This document shows positions 1 to 32,997 of a DNA stretch of 33,063 nucleotides, one piece after another. The translations under genes were made by a program, and so were the position numbers. The notes beneath the pieces were generated by a model. It saw only the letters and a program-made list of their open reading frames with translations, searched no databases and had not been told where the DNA came from. Source of the stretch: Candidatus Micrarchaeota archaeon CG1_02_49_24 (GTDB lineage Archaea > Micrarchaeota > Micrarchaeia > Anstonellales > UBA8471); contig MNVF01000038.1 of NCBI GenBank assembly GCA_001871535.1, forward strand, positions 1 to 33,063, read 5' to 3'. Every line of letters starts with the position of its first letter. Within the stretch, counting starts at the first letter, position 1.

Positions 1-2
1 TT

Positions 3-83
3 GAGCGACCAGCACCCGTAGCGTTTCCGAATGGTGCTGGCGTTGGTTTTGCCCCACGGCACAACCATGCGCAAAACTCGCTC
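3..83 (-). repeat. Family-A double-hairpin element, copy 4. It is in inverted orientation, lies 3' of the aconitase-X small-subunit gene, and its outer stem may continue past the left edge of the window.
   Basis: Read on the minus strand the layout is gagcg-a-[gttttgc N18 gcaaaac]-caacg-[ccagcac N18 gtgctgg]-t-cgctc. Plus-strand coordinates are stems 9-15/34-40 and 46-52/71-77, loops 16-33 and 53-70 (18 nt each), linker 41-45. Confidence 0.75.
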
Positions 84-107
84 CAAAAGGTCATGGAATA
101 CATTCAA

Positions 108-1683: not shown

Positions 1684-3249
1684 CTACAAAAACCTTGTCA
1701 AATCAACCTTCGGGAAAACCGCTTTCCCGAAGTTCTTGCCATTCGCCTTCAACGGGGCAGTGCAGTCAAACCCGCATTTTGCGGTGAAGCACGTTCCGGG
1801 CTCGGCGCTCGGGTCCAGGCTTGAGCCTTTTTCCCTGGGTTTCATCACAAGGCCAGCGTCTGCCTGGAAGCGCGTTGCCATTGCCCACTCGATATCAAGG
1901 GGGTTGTAGATGTCAATGTCCTTGTCAACTATGAAGACGTGCTTGCAGCTTTTATGGCCTTCGAATGCCGCGGCAACCGCCTTTTTCCCGTCGTCTTCCT
2001 GCCGCTTGTCAATTTTGACTATCGCGTGCAGCCAGGAGCAGCCGCCTGGATTGATGTTCACGTCGAGGCATTTGACACCGGCTTCCTCAACCTTTTTGAA
2101 AATCGTGGGCTCGCGCGGCATGCCCATAATGACCTTGTGCTCAAGCTTGCCGGGCAGCAATGCCTGCCATATCGCATCTTTTCTATGGGTTATTCTTTTT
2201 ATCGTGAGCACCGGCTCCTGCCTTGTTATGTCTGTCGTCTCGGTAAGGTCAACAAACGGCCCTTCTGGGGCTTTTTCGTCAAGCCTGACAGTGCCCTCAA
2301 GTACAAACTCGCAGTCTGCCGGAATCGTGGCGTCAAACGTTTTCGCCCTTACAACCTTCAGCGACTCGAGCGAGTTTGCTATCTCCAGTTCGTTCAGGCC
2401 GAAGTCTACTGAGGTTGCGGCAGCAATAAGCACGTTTGGCGCATTGCCGACGCAGACCGCAACATTGAGCTCCTCGTTCTTTTTCAGCAGCTGGTCAAAG
2501 TGCCTGTCTCTTACGACCCGTATTGAAAATTTGTTCTTCCCTATCTGCATTGCCCTATGGAAATCCACGTTCTGTATGCCATCCTTGTCCCTTGTTATGA
2601 AGACCCCGGAACTTATGTAATTGCCGCCGTCTCCTTCGCAGTGGAAGAGTATGGGCAACTTGTCCAGGTCTATTTCCCCAAACTCCACTTCCTGGCAGGG
2701 CGCGCTTTTCACTTCCTCTGGCTTTGTGGGGTGCTCTATTGCCCGGGTTATCTTGGGGATAAGGCCGCCAGCATGAATACTCCGAGGGCTGAAGCCCTCG
2801 GTTTCTGCTGGGTAAACCTGTTCTGGTAATGTCTGTTGGGCTTCAGGCGAGAACCCAGCAGAAACCGCATAGGTGGGTGCGCTTTTTCCCAGCACTAAAC
2901 TGCTGGGTTTCGAGATATTTCTGAGCGAGTGCTGCGCTTGGGGTTGCCGTATGGCAGCACCAACGCCCGGGCCCAAACACCTATCTGTGCTGGCTCGGGT
3001 CGCTCCGGAATATCTCGGCGCACCCTCTGAGTATTCATCAATGCCGAAATAGGCGGCAACCTGCCCCTTGGTGGCAAAGATGTTTCCTGCAACCCTGAAG
3101 CCCGACCCCGTTATTTTTTCAAAAAGCACAGGCCTTTCGCCAGACCCGTTCAGTATGGCCGAAGCCTCCAATTTTCTTGAAACTGACTTTTTCACCGTTG
3201 TAAGCCGGCCCTGCGCGTCCAGCTTTTCAAGATAGCTGCGAAAACTCAT
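1684..3249 (-). CDS. UbiD-family decarboxylase, probably anhydromevalonate phosphate decarboxylase. It carries a ~91-codon in-frame insertion.
   Basis: The UbiD fold is recognisable over the whole ORF (PVLFEKI..GNIF, SAPCQEV, GNYISSGVFIT, PEGPFVDLTE, GGCSWLHAIV). ATG at 3249 overlaps the ubiX stop as ATGA, whereas the track start at 3258 is GTG. Residues ~75-165 are foreign to the family. Confidence 0.85.
   Translation of the reverse strand: MSFRSYLEKLDAQGRLTTVKKSVSRKLEASAILNGSGERPVLFEKITGSGFRVAGNIFATKGQVAAYFGIDEYSEGAPRYSGATRASTDRCLGPGVGAAIRQPQAQHSLRNISKPSSLVLGKSAPTYAVSAGFSPEAQQTLPEQVYPAETEGFSPRSIHAGGLIPKITRAIEHPTKPEEVKSAPCQEVEFGEIDLDKLPILFHCEGDGGNYISSGVFITRDKDGIQNVDFHRAMQIGKNKFSIRVVRDRHFDQLLKKNEELNVAVCVGNAPNVLIAAATSVDFGLNELEIANSLESLKVVRAKTFDATIPADCEFVLEGTVRLDEKAPEGPFVDLTETTDITRQEPVLTIKRITHRKDAIWQALLPGKLEHKVIMGMPREPTIFKKVEEAGVKCLDVNINPGGCSWLHAIVKIDKRQEDDGKKAVAAAFEGHKSCKHVFIVDKDIDIYNPLDIEWAMATRFQADAGLVMKPREKGSSLDPSAEPGTCFTAKCGFDCTAPLKANGKNFGKAVFPKVDLTRFL
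2764..3036 (+). repeat. Composite hairpin insertion inside the UbiD ORF (antisense to the gene). It contains family-A copy 3.
   Basis: Nested and adjacent inverted repeats account for most of it (a handful of short linker runs are left over). These are ccgagggc-tgaa-gccctcgg (2782-2801), ttctgctgggt/acccagcagaa (2803-2813/2853-2863), gggtgcgc/gcgcaccc (2875-2882/3018-3025), cccagca-ctaaac-tgctggg (2888-2907) and the core at 2911-3017. Confidence 0.8.
2911..3017 (+). repeat. Family-A double-hairpin element, copy 3
   Basis: The layout is cgagatatttctgagcg-a-[gtgctgc N18 gcagcac]-caacg-[cccgggcc N18 ggctcggg]-t-cgctccggaatatctcg. The loops are 2936-2953 and 2974-2991, both 18 nt. Confidence 0.85.
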
Positions 3250-3800
3250 TTGCCCCACCGCCTGAACTTTTCATTTTTAATTCCAAACAAATCCATTATC
3301 TTTCCGGTAATAAACGATTCCAAATCCTTTATAGTTTTGGGTTTATAATAGAACGCCGGAGACAGGGGGAAAACAATTACGCCATAAACCGAAAGGTCGT
3401 ACATGTTCCTCAGGGTAGGTGGGCTTAAAGGCGTTTCCCTGACGCACACCACAAGCCTTTTCCCAGTCTTCAGCATGTTGTCCGCGGCCCTTGAAATCAA
3501 AGTCGAGCAATCCGCCCTCGCAATCTCTGAAATGGTTTTAATTGAAGCCGGAATTACAATCATTCCATCCACCAGAAAGGAAGAGCTTGCAATGGGCGCA
3601 GTCATATCATGATTTGAAAAAACATGTGAAGCCAATTTTTTAATACTCGCAACCGTGCAACTGGTTTCTTCCACAACCAATTTTTCCGCCCAGTCGCTTA
3701 CCACCAGGAAGGTTTCAACCTTTGCCTCTTTCAGGGCATTCAGCAGGTCAATGGCGTAATTCACGCCAGATGCGCCGCAGATGCCGACTATAAGCCTCAA
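3246..3800 (-). CDS. ubiX: Flavin prenyltransferase UbiX (makes prenyl-FMN for the UbiD-family enzyme)
   Basis: The 184-aa ORF has an N-terminal MRLIVGICGASG flavoprotein motif and overall UbiX/Pad1 likeness. It is the first gene of the minus-strand operon. Confidence 0.9.
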   Translation of the reverse strand: MRLIVGICGASGVNYAIDLLNALKEAKVETFLVVSDWAEKLVVEETSCTVASIKKLASHVFSNHDMTAPIASSSFLVDGMIVIPASIKTISEIARADCSTLISRAADNMLKTGKRLVVCVRETPLSPPTLRNMYDLSVYGVIVFPLSPAFYYKPKTIKDLESFITGKIMDLFGIKNEKFRRWGK

Positions 3801-3889
3801 TAACTCACCCTAGAACATCAGATTTTACGAATTGAATGTAAATTATTGAAGTGCTGCCATTTAAAATCGGGGGTTTTGCCAATATAATT

Positions 3890-5113
3890 ATGGAAACTAC
3901 TAGTTCAGGGCAGCTATTCCAGCGCCTCAGGAAACAGGGCTATCACCTAGTGGGAAAACATTCTGCTGTGAAAGCCTGCAAATGGGCAGGCTGCGCACTT
4001 AGGAGAGAGGGCAAGTGCTACAAACACGCTTTTTACGGAATTGAGAGCCATCGCTGCGTCCAGTGCACGCCTGCATTGCAATTCTGCACCCTTTCATGCA
4101 GGTTTTGCTGGAGGATGATGCCCGAAATTTCAAAGCGAGTGCCGTATGAACCTGCACTTATTTGCGGCACCGACGCCCAAGCCCCTATGAAACCGCCCGA
4201 TGGCTTGGGTCGCTTGGAGATTTCGCCAGAGGAGAAATGGCAGAAATTGCCAACGGATTTTGAATGGGATGACGCAGGCACGATTATTGACGGACTGCTT
4301 ATGGGGCAGAAGAAACTTGTTTCCGGCTTTGGCGCATTTGCGGATAAAAAAATGTTCGGCGAAGCATTGGCTCCCAGGCATGCAGCCATAAGCCTTACCG
4401 GCGAGCCTACGATATACCCGCACCTTGGAGAATTGATTTGTGAATTCCATAAAAGGGAGATGACCACCTTCCTCGTGACAAATGGCACGCTACCTCAACA
4501 AATCCGAAAACTGGAAGCTGAAAAGCGCCTGCCCACCCAATTATATGTTTCAATGGTAGCCCCTGATGAGAAGACATACCTTCAGACCGCGCAAACCGAG
4601 GACAAACGGCTATGGAAAAACTATCTGGAAACATTGGAAATTTTGAAGGGAATTGGAAAATGTCACAGGACTGCGCTCAGGATGACGCTGGTGAAAAGAT
4701 TGAATGCAGGAACCCGAAACACACAACCCGAAACCCTGACATGTTGGAGCGAGCGCTCCGAGACGGCACTTATGGCAGGAGCGCCGACGCCCGAGCCACA
4801 GGACAATTCCATGAAGGCTCGGGTCGCTCCGACATGTCACCGAAACTGCATTGACGGTTATGCCAAGCAGATTGAGCTTGCCAAACCATGGTATGTGGAA
4901 GTGAAAAGCTTCGTTTATGTCGGAGGGGCAAGGAAGGAGGAGCGGGGCCTGTGCTTAAACGACATGCTCATGATGGAGGAGGTAAGGGAATTTGCAAAAC
5001 TGCTCGCTGAAAAAACAGGCTACATTATCGCGGCCGAGCATGCGCCCAGCAGGGTGGTGCTCCTGTGCAGGAATGAAAACGCAGCAGAAGGCAGGATAAT
5101 AAAACATGCCTGA
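3890..5113 (+). CDS. taw1: tRNA 4-demethylwyosine synthase Tyw1/Taw1 (radical SAM). It carries two in-frame insertions.
   Basis: Motifs seen are HSAVKACKW, the radical-SAM CTLSCRFCWR, SLTGEPT, FLVTNGT, LYVS and VEVKSFVYVGGAR. ATG at 3890 fits the family N-terminus, whereas the track start at 3851 is GTG. Confidence 0.85.
   Translation: METTSSGQLFQRLRKQGYHLVGKHSAVKACKWAGCALRREGKCYKHAFYGIESHRCVQCTPALQFCTLSCRFCWRMMPEISKRVPYEPALICGTDAQAPMKPPDGLGRLEISPEEKWQKLPTDFEWDDAGTIIDGLLMGQKKLVSGFGAFADKKMFGEALAPRHAAISLTGEPTIYPHLGELICEFHKREMTTFLVTNGTLPQQIRKLEAEKRLPTQLYVSMVAPDEKTYLQTAQTEDKRLWKNYLETLEILKGIGKCHRTALRMTLVKRLNAGTRNTQPETLTCWSERSETALMAGAPTPEPQDNSMKARVAPTCHRNCIDGYAKQIELAKPWYVEVKSFVYVGGARKEERGLCLNDMLMMEEVREFAKLLAEKTGYIIAAEHAPSRVVLLCRNENAAEGRIIKHA
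4124..4224 (+). repeat. Family-A double-hairpin element, copy 1 (inside Tyw1, sense orientation)
   Basis: The layout is gaaatttcaaagcg-a-[gtgccgt N18 gcggcac]-cgacg-[cccaagcc N18 ggcttggg]-t-cgcttggagatttc. The loops are 4146-4163 and 4184-4201. Confidence 0.85.
4703..4852 (+). repeat. 150-nt insertion inside Tyw1 containing family-A copy 2 (core 4738-4838)
   Basis: The outer clamp is aatgcag/ctgcatt (4703-4709/4846-4852). The core is gacatgttggagcg-a-[gcgctcc N18 ggagcgc]-cgacg-[cccgagcc N18 ggctcggg]-t-cgctccgacatgtc. The 5' arm carries aacccgaaac twice. Confidence 0.85.
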
Positions 5114-5135
5114 GAAAAAGTTGCAGGTGGGTTTT

Positions 5136-5756
5136 ATGAAACAAGTGCGAACGAGGAAATCTGAAAAAGTAAACAAAACAATTAAGGCGCTCATCATAGA
5201 TTTGGACGGCACTCTCGTGGATTCAACCGATTCGGTCATTCAGATGTACAATACGGTGTTCGCTGATTTCGGGCTGGAACAGCCCCATGAAAATAAGGTG
5301 CGGGCGCTCTTTGGCAGGACAACGCGCGAGTTCATAAACACCCTTGCGCCAGAGCTGCCGGATGACAGGAAAAAGGCCATGTTCAATGCCCTGAGAACGG
5401 CTACCATCGAGGTCGTGCCCTTGATAAAGAAGGGCGAGCTCTGCGGACATATCCCAAAGTTTGCTGAAAAATACAAGCTTGCAGTGGTAACCAACAGGGG
5501 AGAGAATTCCACCAACATCATACTTGAGAAGTTCGATATCCGCAAATATTTTGATTTGGTGGTCAGCGCAGTGCTCCACGAGCCAAAGCCCAGCCCGGAC
5601 ATGCTCTTTTATGTGCTGAAGCAGTTCGGAATATCCCCGGAGGAAGCGGTTTTCCTGGGCGACAGGGACGTGGATGCGATGGCAGGCGCACGGGCTGGTG
5701 TGAGAACACTATTGGTGCCTTTGGGAAAAAAGGCAATGGATGAATTGCTCGGCTAA
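5136..5756 (+). CDS. HAD-superfamily phosphatase (phosphoglycolate phosphatase-like)
   Basis: Motifs seen are IIDLDGTLVDS, VVTNR, KPSPD and GDRDVD. The start is either ATG 5136 or ATG 5106, the latter overlapping the Tyw1 stop. Confidence 0.8.
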   Translation: MKQVRTRKSEKVNKTIKALIIDLDGTLVDSTDSVIQMYNTVFADFGLEQPHENKVRALFGRTTREFINTLAPELPDDRKKAMFNALRTATIEVVPLIKKGELCGHIPKFAEKYKLAVVTNRGENSTNIILEKFDIRKYFDLVVSAVLHEPKPSPDMLFYVLKQFGISPEEAVFLGDRDVDAMAGARAGVRTLLVPLGKKAMDELLG

Positions 5757-6136
5757 CTAGGCCTTATTTTCCTTCTTGAGGTGGTTTTCCTTTGGACACG
5801 CATGACCATCCAATGGCCTGTGCGATTTGGCCCGCGCTTTGGAGGGATACGGATTATTTTTGGATAAAAAACCGTGACTGTCTGCGCAGGAGATTGAGCC
5901 TTAACCTTCATTACAGAAGACCTAACCGGCTTAGGGTCAATAGCGCCATTGCCGCCAGAATGAGTGGCAGGGTTCCCTTTTTTCCCGTTAGGCACTGACG
6001 CCCAGGGTGGCAAAGTGCCTGGGGATGCCGCAGGAACAACTTGAAGCGCACCTGCACGTGAAAAAACTCCTAACGGCGCAACTAGGCCTCGCAACTCCTC
6101 AAGCAAGACTAACCTTCTCTCAAACGGCATATCCAC
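5753..6136 (-). CDS. Hypothetical small basic, Pro/Gly-rich protein (doubtful)
   Basis: This is the only long ORF in a 500-bp gap and lies divergent from endA. It has no recognisable motif and a low-complexity composition. Confidence 0.3.
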   Translation of the reverse strand: MDMPFERRLVLLEELRGLVAPLGVFSRAGALQVVPAASPGTLPPWASVPNGKKGNPATHSGGNGAIDPKPVRSSVMKVKAQSPAQTVTVFYPKIIRIPPKRGPNRTGHWMVMRVQRKTTSRRKIRPS

Positions 6137-6256: not shown

Positions 6257-7432
6257 ATGATTATTTTAGACCTAGACGTAAAGAGGCATGAAGCCAGGGT
6301 CAGCGACGCCTCCAGCGTTGGCCAGCTGGTCAATGGCTGCTATGGCGAAATGGTGAAAGGCACCATCCACCTGACCCCGGAGGAAGCGCTCTATCTCATG
6401 GACATACGCAATGCCAGGGCATTTGACGAAAAACTCAACGAATATTCGTTCAACCAGGTGGCAGGCCTCTTCAAGGTGCCTAAGCTTATCCCCCGCTACC
6501 TGACCTATAAGGATTGGAGGGACAGGGGCCTCATTGCCCGCAATTTCAGGGATTTGGCAAGGCTCAACGAGCGCTTCAACAAGGACGTGGTGGCAAACTA
6601 CCCGCACTCTGAATTCCAGCCAAAGCAGTTCTCAGTTGACGGCATGTTCTTCAAGGACAGCCTCATGAGCGTAATCGATGAGGAAAATGCAGGCCGGGAG
6701 CTTTACAACACATATTGGATAGGCCAGTACGGCACCTACAAGGCAGATGCCCGCGGCAAGCTCCTGAAGCTGGATGTATACGAAACCCTTTTCCTGCTCA
6801 GGCATTTCAATTTCAAGCTGGTGAATTCAGATGAAAAAGAGGTCCTGGCAACTGCCAGGGGCCACAACAAGGACTTCCCAAGCCTTTATGATGTGTATGA
6901 GGACTGGCGGCTCAGGAACTTCATACTCAAGACAGGGTTCAAATTCGGCACCCATTTCCGGGTCTATTTCCCTGGCGCCAGCCCGGCAAAAAGCGGCACA
7001 GACTGGATGCATTCCAAGCACGTGATACACGTGTTTCCAAGGAAGAGCAAGCTGCTCATATCCGAATGGGCGCGGGCAATCAGGGTGGCCCATTCAGTGA
7101 GAAAGACGTTCATACTTGCCATCCCAGGGGAAAAGGCAAAGGGCGAAAAGGAAGTCAGTGAGCTGGATTTCCTGCTCTATCACAGGAGAAAGGAGGGCAT
7201 TGAGACGCCGCGGGAGGGCAAGCCGAAATACCTAATGTTTTCGCTCTCTGAGGAAGAGTTCATAGGCGGTGCTGAGCTTGCCAATGCGATTGAATTCTGC
7301 AAGAAAGCCGGCCTTGGCCTGATGCTTGCCATTGCGGATAGGGAGACCAGCGTCACCTACTACCTTGTGAGAAGGATTGACCTGAAGGGAAGCAAATACG
7401 GATATTATGAAATTGGATGGTACCAGCCGTAA
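6257..7432 (+). CDS. endA: tRNA-splicing endonuclease, single-chain multi-unit form (resembles the three-unit epsilon-type described for ARMAN archaea)
   Basis: The central catalytic unit is GFKFGTHFRVY...HSKHVIHVF...AHSVRKTFILAI (Tyr/His/Lys). An N-terminal unit has LTPEEALYLM and YKDWRDRGLIAR. An extra C-terminal structural unit ends in LMLAIADRETSVTYYLVRR. At 391 aa it is roughly twice a homotetramer-type subunit. Confidence 0.85.
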   Translation: MIILDLDVKRHEARVSDASSVGQLVNGCYGEMVKGTIHLTPEEALYLMDIRNARAFDEKLNEYSFNQVAGLFKVPKLIPRYLTYKDWRDRGLIARNFRDLARLNERFNKDVVANYPHSEFQPKQFSVDGMFFKDSLMSVIDEENAGRELYNTYWIGQYGTYKADARGKLLKLDVYETLFLLRHFNFKLVNSDEKEVLATARGHNKDFPSLYDVYEDWRLRNFILKTGFKFGTHFRVYFPGASPAKSGTDWMHSKHVIHVFPRKSKLLISEWARAIRVAHSVRKTFILAIPGEKAKGEKEVSELDFLLYHRRKEGIETPREGKPKYLMFSLSEEEFIGGAELANAIEFCKKAGLGLMLAIADRETSVTYYLVRRIDLKGSKYGYYEIGWYQP

Positions 7433-16450: not shown

Positions 16451-16614
16451 TTCCTCTCCCCGTAAGTCTTCATGTTGATGAAACTGAAGAGAGCTTCGCT
16501 GCTCACGCATGCATGCTCTCATTCTGTTTGAATGCACCTGCGGATGCATAGCTCGGCGACTGTTGTCACCGATTCCCCAAGCCCCTTCACTTCCTCTCCC
16601 CGTAAGTCTTCATG
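16451..16614. repeat. 24-nt perfect direct repeat (16451-16474 and 16591-16614) flanking a 116-nt hairpin-rich insertion at the 3' end of the Cdc48-like gene
   Basis: ttcctctccccgtaagtcttcatg occurs twice, 140 nt apart. Both copies encode ...MKTYGERK followed by a stop (TGA at 16587, TAG at 16447). Confidence 0.8.
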
Positions 16615-19600
16615 AATGCATAATAAGCCTGCAACATCTCTAAGGAAATGGATGGCCGCCTGCCCTTTATCACTGCAAATATCTCTGCCATTGAGAGATG
16701 CGGTTCAATGCCCCTCAGCTTTTTCTTCACCATCTCAAGCTTGACCCCCTGGCAGATTGAGGTGATGTCTGCCGCCGAGAAGCCCTCAGTCAGCCTGCTG
16801 AGCTCATCATAATCAATGACTGCCCCTGCCGCCACACCCTCAAGGTTTCTCTGGAAGATGTTGGCCCGTGCTTTCAGGTCAGGCGGTGGGATGAACACTA
16901 TCTTGTCAAACCTGCCGGGCCTCATGAGCGCAGGGTCGAGAATCTCCGGCTTGTTGGTGGCGCCTATGAGAAGCACGTTCTTGAGCTCCCGGACCCCGTC
17001 AAGCTCGGAGAGCAGCTGGCCGACAAGGCCGCCATCTGAGAGCTCACGGGAGGGCGCCACAGTCTCAATCTCGTCTATGAATATGATGGCAGGCGCCTGC
17101 TCCTTGGCGCGGTTGAATGTTTCTTTCAGCACCCGGATGCTGTTGGCATAGCCCTTTTTGAGCAGCTCGGCACCTGAGAGAAACTGGAAGGTGGCCTTCA
17201 ACTCATTGGCGGCAGCCTTGACTATGAATGTTTTGCCGCACCCTGGAGGTCCGAATAGGAGCATGCCCTTGTAGGGCTTGACCTTGTACTGCTCCATCAA
17301 GTCCTCGTGGAGAAGCGGCAGCTCGATGGCATCCAGGAGAATGGTCTTCACCTCATCCAGGCCGACCACGTCTGCCCATCTCACAGCATCCTCTTTTTTC
17401 TTTTCCACCTGGCGGCCGACTCTCCTTTCGAAATCAAGCCGGAACTGCTCGTATTCCTCGAGCTGCTCCAGGCCGACGCTGGGCCTGACGTTGTCCAGCA
17501 CCCGCAGGAGGTGCTCCATGGTGATGGGCAGGATTTTGTTCTGCTTTGACGCGTCGGCGGCTGCAAACCGCGCGGCTTCCCTGCACACATTGGCTATATC
17601 AGCGCCCGAGAACCTGTCGGTTTTCTTTGCCAGGAGGCCAAGGTCGATATTTGCCGTTGGAAGCTTGCTCAGCTGCACCTTGAAAATGTCCTTTCTTCCT
17701 TCGGGGTCAGGCAGCTTCATATAGATGATTTTGTCGAACCTGCCGGGCCTGAGAAGGGCGGCATCAAGCATATTGGGGACGTTGGTGGTGCCTATGACCA
17801 TCACGGGCTTGGTTGCGCCCTTGTAGCCGTCAAGCTCTGTGAGAAAAACGGACATTACCCTGGGCGCCACGTCGTCTGCGCTGTAAAGCTCGCGCTTTTT
17901 CCCAATGGAATCAATCTCGTCAAAGAAAAGGATGGAGGGCGCGTTTTCCCTGGCGACCTTGAAAATTTCCGCGACATTTTTCTCGCTGTTGTGGGCAAAG
18001 ATGCCGCCGAACCCGCCAGCGAAATTCTGGCAGGGCTCAACTGAGATATCGTAAACGAATTCCTCATCGGCAACCTGCCTTATTTCCTCAACCCTGTCCC
18101 AATAGATGTCGCCATTGACCACTTTTTCAAGGCTGGTGGATGATGCACCAAGCTTTGTATGTTTCATCAGAAGAATTTGCCTGCCTATGGTTGCCGAGCC
18201 TGCCTCAGAATATTTCTTAAGGTTCCGGAAGACCCATTCCTTCAGCTCGCCGGAGAGCGGTATCTGCACATCGCGGTGCCAGGAACCGGCCTCAAGCGCG
18301 CATTCATACCGCTTGTTCCGCATATCATCCAGAAATCCTATCTGCCCAAAACCCCGGAAGGGTTCGCCGGTCAGGAAAATGCGATACATAAGGGCGCCGC
18401 TCCATTCCATTTTTTCACGCACAGTGGCAACGATGCCGAAATACAATAATAGATATAGAAGCTGGCTGGCAAGGGTTTTGCTGGCAGTGCAGGCCTCGAC
18501 AGTGCCAATTCCTTTCTGATTTTCATAAACCGTGCCATCGCCAGAGAAATAGCCCCTGAGAAAGGCGGCAAGCCTCAGCCTGTCAAGCGAGAACACGGCA
18601 ACTGGCGCCTTCTTCCTCTCAGCACCATGCTCAAGCCCAAGGAAATGCCTCATGAAAACATAAAGCACCCTACCTGGGATATATATGTCGCGGCCCCTGC
18701 CGACGCCACGAAAGTTTTCAGTTTTGGAGTTTCCAGTCTGGGAGTTTTGACTCTCTTCCCTTTCTTCTCCCGAGGGTCTTCTTTCTGGGAAAGAAGAGGC
18801 TCTTTTCTTTTCATAGATGATTATTTTGCCGAAAAGCTTTGCGCATAGTTCGGCAATCTTTCCGAGCTGGCAGTCAGAGGTGCTTACCCTGACCGTGTCT
18901 TCCCGAGTGTAGCTGCCCTCTGCAACCCACAGGCCGAGAAAGAGCGCCAGCTCTCCATCAAGCTTGATTATGCCCGGCAGGCCTTTGCAGGCGCCCTTTC
19001 CTGTGCAGACCAGGATTTTACTGCTGTCATATGAAATGCCGGTGCGCTCCATGAGTGCAATGAACCTGCCGGCCGGCAGTGAAATTTCCTTTTCCCTTGA
19101 CAGAATGTATTTCAAGTATTTGGTATTTTTTAGGCCGAGAAGGATATGTGTTTCGTTTGCGCCGATTTTTTCAACAGCAAGTTTTACGTAATCTCTGACT
19201 CGAGTTACCCTAAGGCCATAATCCGCATGTTTCAGGCTGCCGAGAAAATCAAGCTGCCCAACAGGTGCACTGGGAAACTCGACTCTGGAGGGGATTGCGA
19301 TGTATGAAAAACCCGCCTTGAGTTTTGAGGTTTCAATGCTCTTCACTGAGCTGCCGTCTATAGTGAATAGGGAATGATAACCGGTAACGCGAATTCTGCG
19401 GCCGCTCCTCGTGCGCACTTCGTAAATGGGGGATGTGCATTTGTGTTTTATGTGGCCGGCGATTTCGGCAAACACGGCTTTCCCTTTTTCGTCGAAGCTC
19501 AGAACTTTGGCATCCCTCCTTTGCTCAACAATTTCTCCAATCTTTGCAAGCTTTACCGCACCGTTTTCCATTATCATGATTTCCTCATCGTATGGCAGGC

Positions 19601-20912
19601 TTTCGCCGTACCATTGAGATAAAAGCTCTGAAGTTTTCACATTGTAGAAGCCATAGCTCATCTCCTTTGAGAGAGCGCGCATCAGCATGGTTTTGCCTGT
19701 TCCGGGCGGGCCGAAAAGAAGCACGCCGCTGGGCGGCTTTATGCCGTAGGTGAAGCTCAATTCCTTGTGAAGGAGCGGTGTGATGATTGCCTCGCGCAAC
19801 TCTGCCTTCACGTCATTGTAGTTGCCCACATCATCAAGGGATTTTTCAGCCGTTGACTCTGCCATGTCCTGGACGCCGAACTTGCCGAACTTCTTTGTCT
19901 TCCGCCTGCGCTCAATCAGGCGCTCCCTGCTAAGGTCAACACCGCAGAAGTCAAGCAGGGCCACAATGGCAATCGAGATTACTATATATATAACAGAAAC
20001 CGCAGAGAACATGAACGGCACGCCAAATGCGCTCAGCAAAAGATTGGCCGCAGGCACTCCTAAGAGGGAGAGCGCACCCACGGTCTGCTTCCAATTGCTC
20101 TTTATATTGCCAGGCAGCCAGCCTGCAAGGAACAGGATTGCCCCCCAAAGAAAAATGTGGAGAAGGCCTGAGTCGGCAATGAACAGCTTAAGCATATTGT
20201 CAGCAATTTTCCCCAGCGATGGGGTAATCTGCTTCAATATTATGTCATAGGAGAAAATTGAAACCACAGATGCGGCTGCCTTGGATGGGAGTTCCAGCAG
20301 GCCCACCTCTTCCCTGATGTCATGCTGGAGCGCATCAATCTTCGGGGTGAACTGGCCCAGGTTTGTGATAGGCATGAAGGCGCTGTTCTGCACTATCCAG
20401 AGCGAGGACAGGAGAAGGATTAAACAGACAGCCGGGATGGAAATCACAATACTCCGCTGGGAGCCGGTGCGGAAAGCCCCGAGCACCATGAGCAACGGCA
20501 CAAACCCGGAAAGCAGCGAAAATGGCAATGGCGCAAACGGCGCGCACACGATTATTTCAAGGAATGCAATGACATCCCAGTCTTCATGCATCTGGAATAG
20601 GACAAGGGAGATAATTAGCATAAACGGCCATACGAATAGCGGCGCCTGATAGGAGAGGGCAGGAATTGCGAATATTATGCCCATGATTATGCCAACCTGG
20701 GGAAACCTGTAGGCAGCCAGGCCGCAGGCGAGCGCAAGCAAAAATGAGATGTAAATAGGATAGAACTGGAAAAGCACGAGAAGATAGAGCGCGCCCAGGA
20801 AAATCAGCACAGCATTGCCGAGCTCCTTGTTCTCCTGAAGGGATTGTAGCGTTGCCCTGACCTTCTGCTCGGACATGGTTGCGGATTTCAGTTGTTGTGT
20901 TGAAGCGCTCAC
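16587..20912 (-). CDS. Membrane-anchored double-AAA+ ATPase (Cdc48/VCP-like D1+D2) interrupted by an intein
   Basis: About 330 N-terminal residues form multiple TM helices. D1 has Walker A GPPGTGKT and Walker B ILFFDEIDS. D2 has GPPGCGKT and IIFIDEIET. SRH-like and arginine-finger regions follow each domain. Confidence 0.85.
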   Translation of the reverse strand: MSASTQQLKSATMSEQKVRATLQSLQENKELGNAVLIFLGALYLLVLFQFYPIYISFLLALACGLAAYRFPQVGIIMGIIFAIPALSYQAPLFVWPFMLIISLVLFQMHEDWDVIAFLEIIVCAPFAPLPFSLLSGFVPLLMVLGAFRTGSQRSIVISIPAVCLILLLSSLWIVQNSAFMPITNLGQFTPKIDALQHDIREEVGLLELPSKAAASVVSIFSYDIILKQITPSLGKIADNMLKLFIADSGLLHIFLWGAILFLAGWLPGNIKSNWKQTVGALSLLGVPAANLLLSAFGVPFMFSAVSVIYIVISIAIVALLDFCGVDLSRERLIERRRKTKKFGKFGVQDMAESTAEKSLDDVGNYNDVKAELREAIITPLLHKELSFTYGIKPPSGVLLFGPPGTGKTMLMRALSKEMSYGFYNVKTSELLSQWYGESLPYDEEIMIMENGAVKLAKIGEIVEQRRDAKVLSFDEKGKAVFAEIAGHIKHKCTSPIYEVRTRSGRRIRVTGYHSLFTIDGSSVKSIETSKLKAGFSYIAIPSRVEFPSAPVGQLDFLGSLKHADYGLRVTRVRDYVKLAVEKIGANETHILLGLKNTKYLKYILSREKEISLPAGRFIALMERTGISYDSSKILVCTGKGACKGLPGIIKLDGELALFLGLWVAEGSYTREDTVRVSTSDCQLGKIAELCAKLFGKIIIYEKKRASSFPERRPSGEEREESQNSQTGNSKTENFRGVGRGRDIYIPGRVLYVFMRHFLGLEHGAERKKAPVAVFSLDRLRLAAFLRGYFSGDGTVYENQKGIGTVEACTASKTLASQLLYLLLYFGIVATVREKMEWSGALMYRIFLTGEPFRGFGQIGFLDDMRNKRYECALEAGSWHRDVQIPLSGELKEWVFRNLKKYSEAGSATIGRQILLMKHTKLGASSTSLEKVVNGDIYWDRVEEIRQVADEEFVYDISVEPCQNFAGGFGGIFAHNSEKNVAEIFKVARENAPSILFFDEIDSIGKKRELYSADDVAPRVMSVFLTELDGYKGATKPVMVIGTTNVPNMLDAALLRPGRFDKIIYMKLPDPEGRKDIFKVQLSKLPTANIDLGLLAKKTDRFSGADIANVCREAARFAAADASKQNKILPITMEHLLRVLDNVRPSVGLEQLEEYEQFRLDFERRVGRQVEKKKEDAVRWADVVGLDEVKTILLDAIELPLLHEDLMEQYKVKPYKGMLLFGPPGCGKTFIVKAAANELKATFQFLSGAELLKKGYANSIRVLKETFNRAKEQAPAIIFIDEIETVAPSRELSDGGLVGQLLSELDGVRELKNVLLIGATNKPEILDPALMRPGRFDKIVFIPPPDLKARANIFQRNLEGVAAGAVIDYDELSRLTEGFSAADITSICQGVKLEMVKKKLRGIEPHLSMAEIFAVIKGRRPSISLEMLQAYYAFMKTYGERK
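17988..19601 (-). mobile_element. 538-aa intein with a LAGLIDADG homing-endonuclease domain, inserted in AAA+ D1 between Walker A and Walker B
   Basis: The host junction is WYGE|S...FAHN|SEKNV, which restores the canonical GESEKNV. Block B is RVTGYHSLF. The two LAGLIDADG motifs are LALFLGLWVAEGS and LAAFLRGYFSGDGT. The C-terminal block is VYDISVEP..NFAGG..IFAHN followed by Ser+1. Confidence 0.85.
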
Positions 20913-20959: not shown

Positions 20960-21290
20960 GGACTAGATTCACAGGTATCAGATTTTACGAAGAGCCCATC
21001 GAGCAGACTTTGTCTGTTTGAGCTATCGCGCAACAGCACGATTCAATCGGCGGCAGCAGTCGGCGAGATTTTCACCCGCAGGTGAAAAGCCAGCAGGCAA
21101 TCGGCGGCAGCAGTCGCCGAGCTATGCACCATCTGGTGCATTCAACTGTCAGCAAGGCTGACAGTACACAGATTGAGCCTGTTTGAATCGACCTGTTGGT
21201 TGATCAGATTTTCCGAAGAGCCTCTCTCGCTGATGCGAGAGACCCTGCACAATGTGCAGGGTATGAAGGCTCATTCGGAAAATCTGATAA
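20960..21290. repeat. Hairpin-dense divergent intergenic region (families B and C)
   Basis: Hairpins seen are cagac-ttt-gtctg (21004-21016), ttttcacc-cgca-ggtgaaaa (21069-21088), tgcacc-atct-ggtgca (21125-21140), ctgtcag-caagg-ctgacag (21146-21164) and tcgacc-tgtt-ggttga (21188-21203). The direct repeat caatcggcggcagcagtcg recurs 55 nt apart. Confidence 0.75.
21203..21281 (+). repeat. 79-nt perfect repeat, copy A (family-C three-way-junction element)
   Basis: It is identical to 32919-32997. The fold is cagattttccgaagagcc-[tctctcgc tgat gcgagaga]-[ccctgcac aatg tgcaggg]-tatgaa-ggctcattcggaaaatctg. The closing stem extends to 21287 in this copy. Confidence 0.9.
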
Positions 21291-21467: not shown

Positions 21468-22613
21468 ATGGCAATCCTTATCATAGTTTTCTCAGCCGGA
21501 TTCATAGCCCTCCTCTACCTCATGAAAAAAACCAGCGCGAAAAAGACGAAATATCTCACCAGCGTAGACACCCAGAGGCTGCCGGGCGAAGGCGCCCATG
21601 TGGGCCGAATCGCAGAGCAGAGCTTGAGTGCCTACCTGCCCTTTGACAAGCTCACCATGCATTCCCTGGTGGCAGGCGCCACTGGTTCAGGCAAGACCGT
21701 TGCTGCCCAGGTAGTTGCCGAGGAGGCGCTCCTGAACAAGGTGAGCATACTCGTGTTTGACCCAACGGCGCAATGGACAGGCTTCCTCAGGAAGCAGGCT
21801 ATAAGCGATATGCTGAAACGGTATGCGCGGTTTGGCCTGCAAAAGAGCGATGCGCGTGCATTCGACGGCAACATCTACCTAGTGGAAAATTCCGAAACGT
21901 TCCAGATAAACGTGAAAAAATACATGATGCCCGGAGAGATAAACGTATTCGTGCTGAACAGGCTGAAGCCCCAGGAGATGGAAATCATTGTTACCCGCGT
22001 GATTAAGGCGGTATTCGAGGCGAACCTGGAGGAATACAGGGGGCTGCGGCTGCTCATTGTGTTTGACGAGGTGCACAGGCTGCTTCCGAAGTTCGGGGGG
22101 ACTGGTGAAGGGTTTAAGCAGATAGAACGCGCGGTCCGCGAGTTCAGGAAATGGGGCGTTGGGATGGTGCTTGTCTCCCAGGTGCTGAGCGATTTTGTTG
22201 GTGAAATCAAGGCGAACATTGGCACTGAGATGCAGTTCCGGACGAAATACGAGCAGGATTTGGAGCGCATACGCTACAAATTCGGCCCGGAATCATTGCT
22301 GGGAGTGGTGAAGGCAAATGTCGGCACCGGGCTGATGCACAATTCGGAATACAACAACGGCAATCCCTATTTCGTGGAATTCCGGCCGCTCTTGCACAAT
22401 GTGGTGCGATTGAGCGACAAGGAGCTTGACACTTATAAAAGGTATAATGACAGGATTGTGGCGTTGGAGCAGAGAATTGAGAAAATGAAGGAAGATGGGA
22501 ATGATGTATTTGATTTGAACCTTGAGCTGAACCTGGCAAAAGATAAAATGAAAAAGGGCGCGTTCAACATTGTGGATATTTACCTTGAGAGCCTGGAAGG
22601 GAAGACGGCTTGA
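21468..22613 (+). CDS. Membrane-anchored P-loop NTPase of the HerA/FtsK/VirB4-like (DUF87-type) kind
   Basis: It has an N-terminal TM (MAILIIVFSAGFIALLYL), Walker A (VAGATGSGKT) and Walker B (LLIVFDEVHRL). The start was moved from TTG 21339 to ATG 21468. Confidence 0.65.
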   Translation: MAILIIVFSAGFIALLYLMKKTSAKKTKYLTSVDTQRLPGEGAHVGRIAEQSLSAYLPFDKLTMHSLVAGATGSGKTVAAQVVAEEALLNKVSILVFDPTAQWTGFLRKQAISDMLKRYARFGLQKSDARAFDGNIYLVENSETFQINVKKYMMPGEINVFVLNRLKPQEMEIIVTRVIKAVFEANLEEYRGLRLLIVFDEVHRLLPKFGGTGEGFKQIERAVREFRKWGVGMVLVSQVLSDFVGEIKANIGTEMQFRTKYEQDLERIRYKFGPESLLGVVKANVGTGLMHNSEYNNGNPYFVEFRPLLHNVVRLSDKELDTYKRYNDRIVALEQRIEKMKEDGNDVFDLNLELNLAKDKMKKGAFNIVDIYLESLEGKTA

Positions 22614-22812
22614 AAAGGACCTGCTCTTCCAGGCTGACGATAATGTTCTACTCTTGGTCCATAATGTTCTGGGAAGGCACACGCCACTCTTTCTCTAGTG
22701 CGGTTATCCCAGCCGCCTGCGACATTAGAAACAAATTGGGCAAGATATGTTCCCACAACTTCTTTAGGATCAGGGCGTGTAGTAACTTCCTGTAGTGCAA
22801 CTTTAGCATGAT

Positions 22813-23100
22813 TTCTTATGCCCTCTGGTAATCCATCATCATGGATGGCTTCACGTAACAAATCTGTCCGGCCGATTCCTGCCGCAGCGTCAAGCGCATA
22901 TGTTCTTATGCCCTCTGGTGATCCATCATCATGGATGGCTTCCCTTAACAAATCTGTCCGGCCGATTCCTGCCGCAGCGTCAAGCGCCGTATGCATTTGC
23001 GTTTGCGCATGGTTTCTTATGCCCTCTGGTAATCCATCATCATGGATGGCTTCCCTTAACAAATCTGTCCAGCCTCTTCCTGCCGCAGCGTCAAGCGCAC
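22813..23100 (-). repeat. Three near-identical coding repeat units (offsets 90 and 111 nt) encoding HEAT repeats
   Basis: ttcttatgccctctggt.atccatcatcatggatggcttc...tcctgccgcagcgtcaagcgc starts at 22813, 22903 and 23014. The peptide is LDAAAGIGRTDLLREAIHDDG.PEGIR. Confidence 0.85.
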
Positions 23101-23106
23101 TTTTTA

Positions 23107-23204
23107 GTAAAGTCCCTATCTTGCCAACCACTTCATCTCTATTTCCTCGGAATACAGGGTGTGCACGAGCCCGGTAAAGTCCCTATCTTGCCAACCACTT
23201 CATC
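23107..23204. repeat. 31-nt perfect direct repeat (23107-23137 and 23174-23204) bracketing 36 unique nt
   Basis: gtaaagtccctatcttgccaaccacttcatc occurs twice with a 67-nt offset. Confidence 0.85.
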
Positions 23205-32918: not shown

Positions 32919-32997
32919 ATCAGATTTTCCGAAGAGCCTCTCTCGCTGATGCGAGAGACCCTGCACAATGTGCAGGGTATGAAGGCTCATTCGGAAA
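32919..32997 (+). repeat. 79-nt perfect repeat, copy B (family-C element)
   Basis: It is identical to 21203-21281 and lies upstream of the 31583..32833 gene. Confidence 0.9.

Follow-up and report, generated by a model that had tools for sequence, protein, structure and literature searches.

A composite of two multi-copy palindromic repeat families, probably a miniature mobile element, lies in frame within an archaeal UbiD-family gene

What occupies the N-terminal part of a UbiD-family decarboxylase gene that is almost ninety codons longer than its relatives? The gene lies near one end of contig MNVF01000038.1, and the whole stretch of this contig that we analysed, 33,063 nt in length, is hereafter called the window. 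An earlier reading of the same DNA (the original prediction) had proposed that the gene contains an insertion of about 91 codons, built largely of nested hairpins, that stays in frame although the repeat element is antisense to the gene, in the manner of the Rickettsia palindromic elements (RPEs). The insert turned out to combine two multi-copy repeat families, with one (family A) nested in the other (family O). Considering its termini, its copies, its frame and the shortening or absence of copies in a close relative, we think it likely that the insert is a non-autonomous, RPE-like palindromic element of the type known as MITEs (miniature transposable elements with inverted repeats), translated as a disordered loop. 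An O element bounded by AT and by a 16-bp terminal inverted repeat (TIR), and carrying a 103-nt A module and extra hairpins, would have landed in the UbiD coding sequence. It would be transcribed with UbiD and translated as a loop of 88 residues between two N-terminal helices, and the enzyme would stay functional despite the loop. Mobilisation would occur in trans, presumably by a transposase or recombinase that recognises folded or inverted-repeat ends.

The archaeal origin proposed for the host is supported by the genes around it, which include TYW1, a release factor of the eRF1 type and a tRNA-intron endonuclease, and by the named UbiD homologues, which come from Diapherotrites, Micrarchaeota and other archaeal metagenome-assembled genomes, the first two being the nearest. 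The product of the host gene matched the Pfam domains UbiD_N (residues 10-77), UbiD (183-371) and UbiD_C (376-499) and the NCBIfam model TIGR00148. From the adjoining AcnX and UbiX genes we judge it to be probably the archaeal mevalonate-pathway decarboxylase; the label of an essential isoprenoid-pathway enzyme in the original prediction is likewise deduced solely from synteny with these two genes. The open reading frame (ORF) of 524 aa is intact, every family-invariant residue is aligned, and dN/dS between the window gene and its orthologue in the sister lineage L001, with the insert left out, is 0.21. The host gene is under purifying selection.

To place the insertion, alignments with relatives were used. 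The closest solved structure, 6h6v, aligned with query residues 5-60 and then with 159-520, and between these blocks the structure advances by no more than its residues 60 to 71. The best 120 homologues, at most 78% identical, are 430-468 aa long (nearly all 430-440), and the segment is missing from 120/120. Removal of 2775-3038 in silico gave a 436-aa protein reading ...AAYFGIDAGGLIPK... at the junction, with the spacing FGI-DAGG-LIPK equal to FGI-KPNE-LIPK of orthologues. A 262-nt element (2775-3036) and one AT together account for a net gain of 264 nt (88 codons). The insertion itself was correctly recognised, and its length was overestimated by about three codons: the inserted residues read EYSEGA...PRSIH, and the following AGG belongs to the host gene. 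The same insertion, at 99.8-100% identity, is present in the independent ENA and JGI assemblies L004, L005 and L006, so that four independent assemblies agree and the insertion is not an assembly artefact. When the 88-aa peptide was compared exhaustively by HMMER with 1.84 billion representative proteins, a single real relative emerged, an ORF from another copy of the element; because this is its only relative, the insert is no conserved domain, in agreement with the 120 homologues. A word-indexed protein search gave no match to the peptide, and missed the parent protein too. In the AlphaFold model the insert has pLDDT (the model's per-residue confidence) below 50 and no secondary structure, and forms a loop between helices 61-67 and 163-172, while values in the core blocks that flank it, N-terminal and central, mostly exceed 90.

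The insert is indeed built of nested hairpins (Table 1). All inverted repeats listed in the original prediction were found: the hairpins at 2782-2801 and 2888-2907, the 8-bp clamp and the family-A core at 2911-3017, which a covariance model identified as a true repeat. The stem given as 2803-2813/2853-2863 is also present, and is 15 bp long instead of 11 bp. Overlooked until now was the outer repeat, which has one mismatch in 16 nt and encloses the entire insert. The 266-nt segment folded with -142 kcal/mol on the + strand (z = -8.7) and with -131 kcal/mol on the mRNA-sense strand (z = -9.6), a z of about -9 on either strand, and 0/200 shuffles were as good. An alternative pairing of 2789-2797 with 2838-2846 covaries in comparison with L001 (CTGAAGCC/GGCTTCAG versus CTAAAGCC/GGCTTTAG).

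The outer repeat defines family O. Its 16-bp TIR, ATGAATACTCNGAGGG, is found in all copies, always with AT ahead of it, and the closing helix consists of 10 bp, a 1x1 mismatch and 5 bp. At least eight further copies have ends of AT followed by GAAYACTYCGAGGG, from which the L end runs on as CTAAAGCC and the R end as GCGCACCC. The minimal O measures 114-115 nt between the AT dinucleotides and the known sizes range from 115 to 427 nt, with one A module in the window, L132 and L145 and three in L160. In the window, O runs from L to R on the + strand, so the UbiD gene reads it from R to L. The 262-nt composite of the window aligned end to end with the composites of L132 and L145, and the hairpins that were compared are kept by compensatory substitutions. 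The 15-bp stem is maintained in both in this way, and both carry CCTACACC/GGTGTAGG where the window has CCCAGCA/TGCTGGG. Since they align over their full length with compensatory changes, the composite propagates as a unit. The original prediction had missed O as a multi-copy family with its own TIR, the recurrence of the 262-nt composite and the shorter version in the sister lineage.

Family A has a layout of 11-nt arm, 81-nt core and 11-nt arm, 103 nt in all. With the covariance model, the UbiD copy scored 96.6 bits when read on the + strand but 48.7 when read on the - strand, confirming that it is antisense to the gene. The window holds four copies, all within the first 5 kb (the AcnX-UbiD-UbiX-TYW1 region), and the model found none in the remaining 28 kb; this clustering suggests local hopping or a regional bias. 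The copy at the window edge has a second A nested in its 3' arm, outside the window. A metagenome scan gave 43 A loci, chiefly from a few groundwater sample series, and about 30 distinct copies were obtained; in related contigs totalling 213 kb, the covariance model detected about 45 copies. Copies also occur within the arms of other A copies and between genes, where they form dense arrays together with further families of small palindromes.

The alignment of 32 distinct A copies is near gapless, and the 81-nt core is free of gaps in all but a few. The fold is a three-way junction of P1a, an internal loop (2x2 in the consensus), P1b, P2 and P3, in which the P1 stem comprises 8 bp, the small symmetric loop and 5 bp. 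Changes on both sides were seen in 18/28 base pairs, and 96.8% of cells were paired, compared to 82% after column shuffles and 31-43% with slid partners. The arms differ in sequence among subfamilies yet remain complementary. Wobble pairs and A.C mismatches are about equal in number, apart from one invariant G.U (columns 56:91), and with such counts the data do not indicate which strand folds. One copy (L155, 6401-6552) is 152 nt long, enlarged by an internal insertion of 45 nt (15 codons), a nested event that is again a multiple of three.

Table 1. Positions in the window of the host gene, the composite element, its inverted repeats and the family-A modules.
Feature	Position	Strand	Description	Basis
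UbiD-family decarboxylase gene	1684..3258	-	524 aa, hosts the insertion	Pfam, NCBIfam, PDB alignment, homologues
Composite O element with AT at each end	2773..3038	+		Outer inverted repeat, folding z-scores, O census, L132/L145 homology, deletion test
O left terminal inverted repeat ATGAATACTCCGAGGG	2773..2788		Pairs with 3023-3038; 16 nt, 94%; ends also at at least 10 other loci	
O right terminal inverted repeat CCCTCTGAGTATTCAT	3023..3038		Pairs with 2773-2788	
Short hairpin CCGAGGGCT/AGCCCTCGG	2782..2801		Arms 2782-2790/2793-2801	
Perfect 15-bp stem	2799..2867		2799-2813 with 2853-2867, 39-nt loop	
8-bp clamp, 5' half GGGTGCGC	2875..2882		Pairs with 3018-3025; conserved in all O copies	
Small hairpin CCCAGCA/TGCTGGG	2888..2907		Arms 2888-2894/2901-2907	
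Family-A arms	2911-2928/3000-3017		Inverted repeat	
Family-A module in UbiD	2913..3015	+	103 nt; flanks CG 2911-2912 and CG 3016-3017; antisense to UbiD	
TYW1-a, family-A module in TYW1	4123..4225	+	Sense; CC/CC flanks; missing from L001	
TYW1-b, second family-A module in TYW1	4737..4839	+	Sense; CC/CC flanks	
Family-A module at window edge	1..96	-	Downstream of AcnX small-subunit gene, incomplete at edge	

How can such a structure enter a gene without breaking it? For both families, the unit plus 2 bp is a multiple of three: 103 + 2 = 105 nt for A, and 115 + 2 = 117 or 262 + 2 = 264 nt for O, with 6/8 O copies at 0 mod 3 once the 2 bp are added. The indels that separate the window lineage from L001 in UbiD and TYW1 (147, 105, 48, 21 and 21 nt) are all multiples of three (5/5). 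The insert is open in the UbiD frame, as the original prediction had noted, and this is the sole stop-free frame of the six; one given frame of 266 nt is open by chance with a probability of about 0.03 in mononucleotide shuffles. The O frame used by UbiD is stop-free in 7/8 copies, including composites of 266, 368 and 431 nt, and the remaining five frames have stops in nearly all copies, up to 10. It is open also in L132 and L145, where the copies lie outside long genes. For four of the six frames of family A, 69-84% of the 32 copies are open versus 29% in shuffles, and the two closed frames are blocked by the terminal TGA of TGACA. The unit lengths and stop content of A and O are biased towards compatibility with a frame, and because the sequences are poor in stops and the units are multiples of three, an insertion adds codons and leaves the gene unbroken.

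The same families lie in frame in other genes and in both orientations, which supports the proposed persistence in the manner of RPEs. The hosts that count as clear cases are UbiD, TYW1 (with two copies), MutL and, in L160, a membrane protein of 644 aa, which reads through 143 codons of O plus three A modules. The TYW1 copies of A are in the sense orientation to their host, and those in UbiD, MutL and the L160 protein are antisense. When TYW1 is aligned to PDB 2yx0, its A modules fall at two interruptions between aligned blocks, and the MutL element lies in an inter-domain linker; the element positions in UbiD, TYW1 and MutL thus appear to be tolerated. The ArgG locus of L147 was considered as a further genic case and set aside, its two A copies being upstream of the Pfam domain and probably intergenic. 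The TYW1 radical-SAM gene (3851-5113, + strand) adjoins UbiX and holds both of its A modules in the sense orientation; TYW1-b is enclosed by GAAACYCG-type repeats and a 7-bp inverted repeat (approximately 4703-4852).

Comparison with L001, whose flanking DNA is ~95% identical, revealed that close lineages are polymorphic for the presence of these elements. In UbiD, L001 has at the identical site an insert of 39 codons, with the ends DEYSEGA...GFSPRSIH, that is, a 115-nt O compared to the 262-nt O of the window. The TYW1-a site is empty in L001, with an alignment gap of exactly 105 nt, and removal of 103 nt and one CC from TYW1-a gave RMMPEEKWQ versus RMMPENKWQ in L001. In turn, the L001 TYW1 gene (~5400-5450, - strand) contains, after the codons for ...CALR, a private 48-nt in-frame insert with a hairpin, GGGIEHPKDARAIAQE, that the window is without; each lineage therefore has private in-frame insertions. 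Indels of 21 nt were also observed on both sides of the shared A module in the L001 gene. By a manual reading of the copy listing, identical 2-bp flanks are present in 6/13 distinct A contexts, against a chance expectation of 1/16.

Several of these properties are those of MITEs. The elements are small (A 103 nt, O 115-427 nt) and have no transposase gene, their only long open frame being the read-through one. They have TIRs, of 16 bp in all O copies and as complementary arms of 8 + 5 bp in A, and they occur as dispersed multiple copies with insertion polymorphism relative to L001. Several points nevertheless weigh against a MITE-type element that is translated within UbiD. We infer, and did not observe, the presence of the insert in the mature mRNA and the protein and hence its translation, and ribosomes might be hindered by so stable a fold in the mRNA (-131 kcal/mol). 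The 2-bp duplication is missing from about half of the A contexts, and the AT at the O ends is constant and self-complementary, which makes it ambiguous between a duplication and a part of the repeat. An autonomous element with matching ends was not found in the window and ~300 kb of related contigs. The copies share descent, so that the stop-codon and covariation statistics overstate their independence; the frame and stop pattern is nonetheless consistent among diverged subfamilies. Finally, decaying MITE copies do not usually diverge in a way that preserves structure and leaves the lengths of core and loops nearly constant, and this may point to a function or mechanism beyond those considered here. 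The structure could be maintained by recognition by the mobilising enzyme, by a folded single-strand intermediate or by neutral hairpin correction.

Other explanations were considered. A and O might represent a new class of archaeal mobile element that propagates via a folded single strand of DNA or RNA, which we regard as unlikely; it would explain the compensatory retention of every helix and the near-fixed core and loop lengths, and units that are multiples of three after a 2-bp duplication, with stop-poor sequence, may then be a strategy for colonising coding DNA where the genome is small and densely packed with genes. More radically still, the host might cut the elements out of RNA by an undescribed hairpin-guided cut-and-ligate route. 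It is fairly improbable that the repeats instead spread by recombination, gene conversion or template switching between existing palindromes, with hairpins kept by quasi-palindrome correction and not by selection. Conversion between O copies with the same ends would easily give the short and the long O at one UbiD site, P2 and P3 segments appear shuffled among A copies, and the 99% identity between L160 and L165 extends as far as the O end, beyond which the two diverge. Template switching is, moreover, a known neutral route to changes in DNA hairpins that look compensatory. However, such exchange leaves unexplained the first copies in the unrelated genes UbiD, TYW1 and MutL, the clean 103 + 2 nt event at TYW1-a with its duplicated CC, and the same element ends in many unrelated flanks. 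Gene conversion or template switching probably contributes alongside the insertion of a mobile element.

Removal of the element from the transcript, as a novel hairpin-bounded archaeal intron that is cut and religated to give a protein without the 88 residues, is very unlikely. The ends are joined by a 16-bp helix, the insert folds into a closed rod, removal of 264 nt restores an orthologue-like protein, and the gene of a 391-aa tRNA-splicing endonuclease is 3 kb away (6257-7432). Against these stand the absence of a bulge-helix-bulge (BHB) at the O and A boundaries (the O stem has a 1x1 mismatch and the A loop is 2x2 in the consensus), the lack of any Rfam intron or ribozyme match and the occurrence of both orientations to host genes. 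An excised segment needs neither a length divisible by three nor a stop-free frame, yet every genic case has both, and excision of the exact helix-bounded 266 nt would shift the frame. A BHB intron in the strict sense was rejected, as 3-nt bulges around a 4-bp helix are not present at either junction and antisense cases occur too; RNA-level excision is unlikely in general. The two outcomes differ in their products. A translated insert would give the tryptic peptides YSGATR, CLGPGVGAAIR, QPQAQHSLR and NISKPSSLVLGK, and an insert-free protein a junction peptide that spans FGIDAGGLIPK, with ...GGCATTGAT joined to GCTGGCGGC... in the nucleic acid if the segment were excised. Co-option of the structure, as an mRNA element tuning translation or stability of the operon or as a functional peptide loop, is highly improbable. 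Hairpins are retained by compensatory changes among diverged copies, O keeps one frame open outside long genes (L132, L145) and an insert is retained in both 95%-identical lineages; on the other hand, the same modules occur in unrelated genes and intergenic arrays in both orientations, and the peptide varies greatly (39 or 88 residues at a single site), has a predicted disordered state and is without homologues elsewhere. The chance that the gene is inactivated or the assembly chimeric is close to negligible. Repeats can mislead assemblers, and L165 and L160 differ in their left flanks, a hint of such problems elsewhere, but four independent assemblies agree on the insertion, and the intact 524-aa ORF with aligned invariant residues, the dN/dS of 0.21 and the confident AlphaFold core speak against inactivation. 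Collectively, the insertion of a composite MITE-type element remains the reading that we favour.

Searches for other origins were negative. IMG/VR contained no A copy and only 17 single-ended, chance-like matches to O ends, and viral carriage was set aside. ARAGORN reported no tRNA or tmRNA in the window or in four related loci, and a tRNA- or tmRNA-like origin was rejected accordingly. Rfam 15 gave no match at the gathering score in the entire window, and an E-value search of 2650-4950 gave just two sub-threshold matches of 19.6 bits each. A contig scan with the pattern GCGAGN{26,34}CCRACGCCN{24,34}GGTCGC, which is too loose, returned only chance matches in GC-rich bacteria.

Other features of the window and the related contigs were noted. 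The tRNA-splicing endonuclease (+ strand) is far longer than the 177-position tRNA-intron lyase (EndA) model that it matches, which suggests a multi-unit enzyme of the type reported in ultrasmall archaea; such multi-unit endonucleases have a broad substrate range. In L137, from the same community, a gene of the TnpB family of RNA-guided endonucleases (4681-5799, - strand; 159.8 bits to guided_TnpB) lies on a 2.9-kb segment that is missing from the otherwise near-identical contig L150. This TnpB element was considered as the autonomous partner and rejected, since its ends are unrelated to O and A. A further repeat, family B, is a 79-nt exact direct repeat in the window (21203-21281 and 32919-32997) with an outer inverted repeat ATCAGATTTTCCGAA... 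around two hairpins; in L137 (2893-2977 and 5865-5945) it lies on both sides of the TnpB-carrying segment, beside a repeated promoter-like sequence. Family C is a 50-nt inverted repeat (16528-16577/21096-21145, 84% complementary; also 21044-21138) of the type TTGAATGC-hairpin-ATAGCTCGRCG, which brackets a 1441-aa ORF (16587..20912); arrays of the motif are also present in L165 (2140-2260). Three tandem 93-nt units at 22806-23099, 92-94% identical and spaced 90 and 111 nt from start to start, lie within an ORF (22580..23131, - strand) and are probably a protein repeat.

In-frame insertion of this kind has consequences for annotation and for protein biology. It reduces family-model scores (TYW1 reaches 303.7 bits with its NCBIfam model, under the cut-off of 317.95) and yields truncated gene calls (TYW1 is called at 308 aa in L004 and L005). 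The inserts are also natural loop-insertion experiments in UbiD, TYW1 and MutL.

How does the composite compare to known systems? Archaeal BHB introns of tRNA, rRNA and cbf5 mRNA are likewise structured intervening segments with paired ends, and here too a splicing endonuclease gene is near; A and O differ in being without the BHB motif, in occurring antisense as well as sense and in always keeping the frame and lacking stops, neither of which a spliced intron requires. Repetitive extragenic palindromic (REP) sequences, bacterial interspersed mosaic elements and the palindrome-associated transposable elements derived from the insertion sequences (IS) IS200/IS605 are similarly rich in structure, a plausible parallel is that a folded strand is recognised, and a TnpB gene is present in the same community. 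REPs are, however, 20-40 nt long and extragenic, and IS200/IS605 derivatives are without TIRs or duplication, while the ends of the L137 TnpB element are unlike O or A. With MITEs the elements share small size, the lack of a transposase, TIRs, multiple and nested copies and presence/absence polymorphism between close strains, and possibly short flanking duplications. They differ in that the window and ~300 kb of related contigs yielded no cognate autonomous IS, in that the A arms vary while staying complementary, with internal hairpins and core lengths conserved far beyond what would be expected of passive MITE copies, and in the notable share of A and O within genes, MITEs being mostly intergenic (PMC11602168). 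A 2024 review of prokaryotic MITEs lists few archaeal MITEs and no in-frame archaeal example (PMC10969869), and we did not find an archaeal precedent in the open-access literature.

The closest likeness is to RPEs, which that review describes as palindromic elements in frame in Rickettsia genes (Ogata et al. 2000, 2002; PMC10969869). Both are short (~100-150 nt), multi-copy palindromic repeats that encode no transposase, and both keep a conserved open frame per family and lie in frame in unrelated housekeeping genes at fold-compatible positions. We do not claim membership: the likeness is one of description, and homology would not be expected across domains of life. The RPE host is an alphaproteobacterium, whereas the host here is an archaeon. 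Here at least two families nest, and A is a three-way junction with abundant covariation, not a simple hairpin. Here, too, the unit with its 2-bp flank is a multiple of three, and A, of whose six frames four are open, is used in both orientations. In-frame selfish palindromes in housekeeping genes have hitherto been seen as chiefly a peculiarity of Rickettsia. If an uncultivated archaeon, probably of DPANN type, has evolved such a system independently, the system, distinguished by its archaeal host, modular nesting, units divisible by three after a 2-bp duplication, stop-depleted frames and strong structural covariation, would show that mobile DNA compatible with coding is a recurrent solution in compact genomes.

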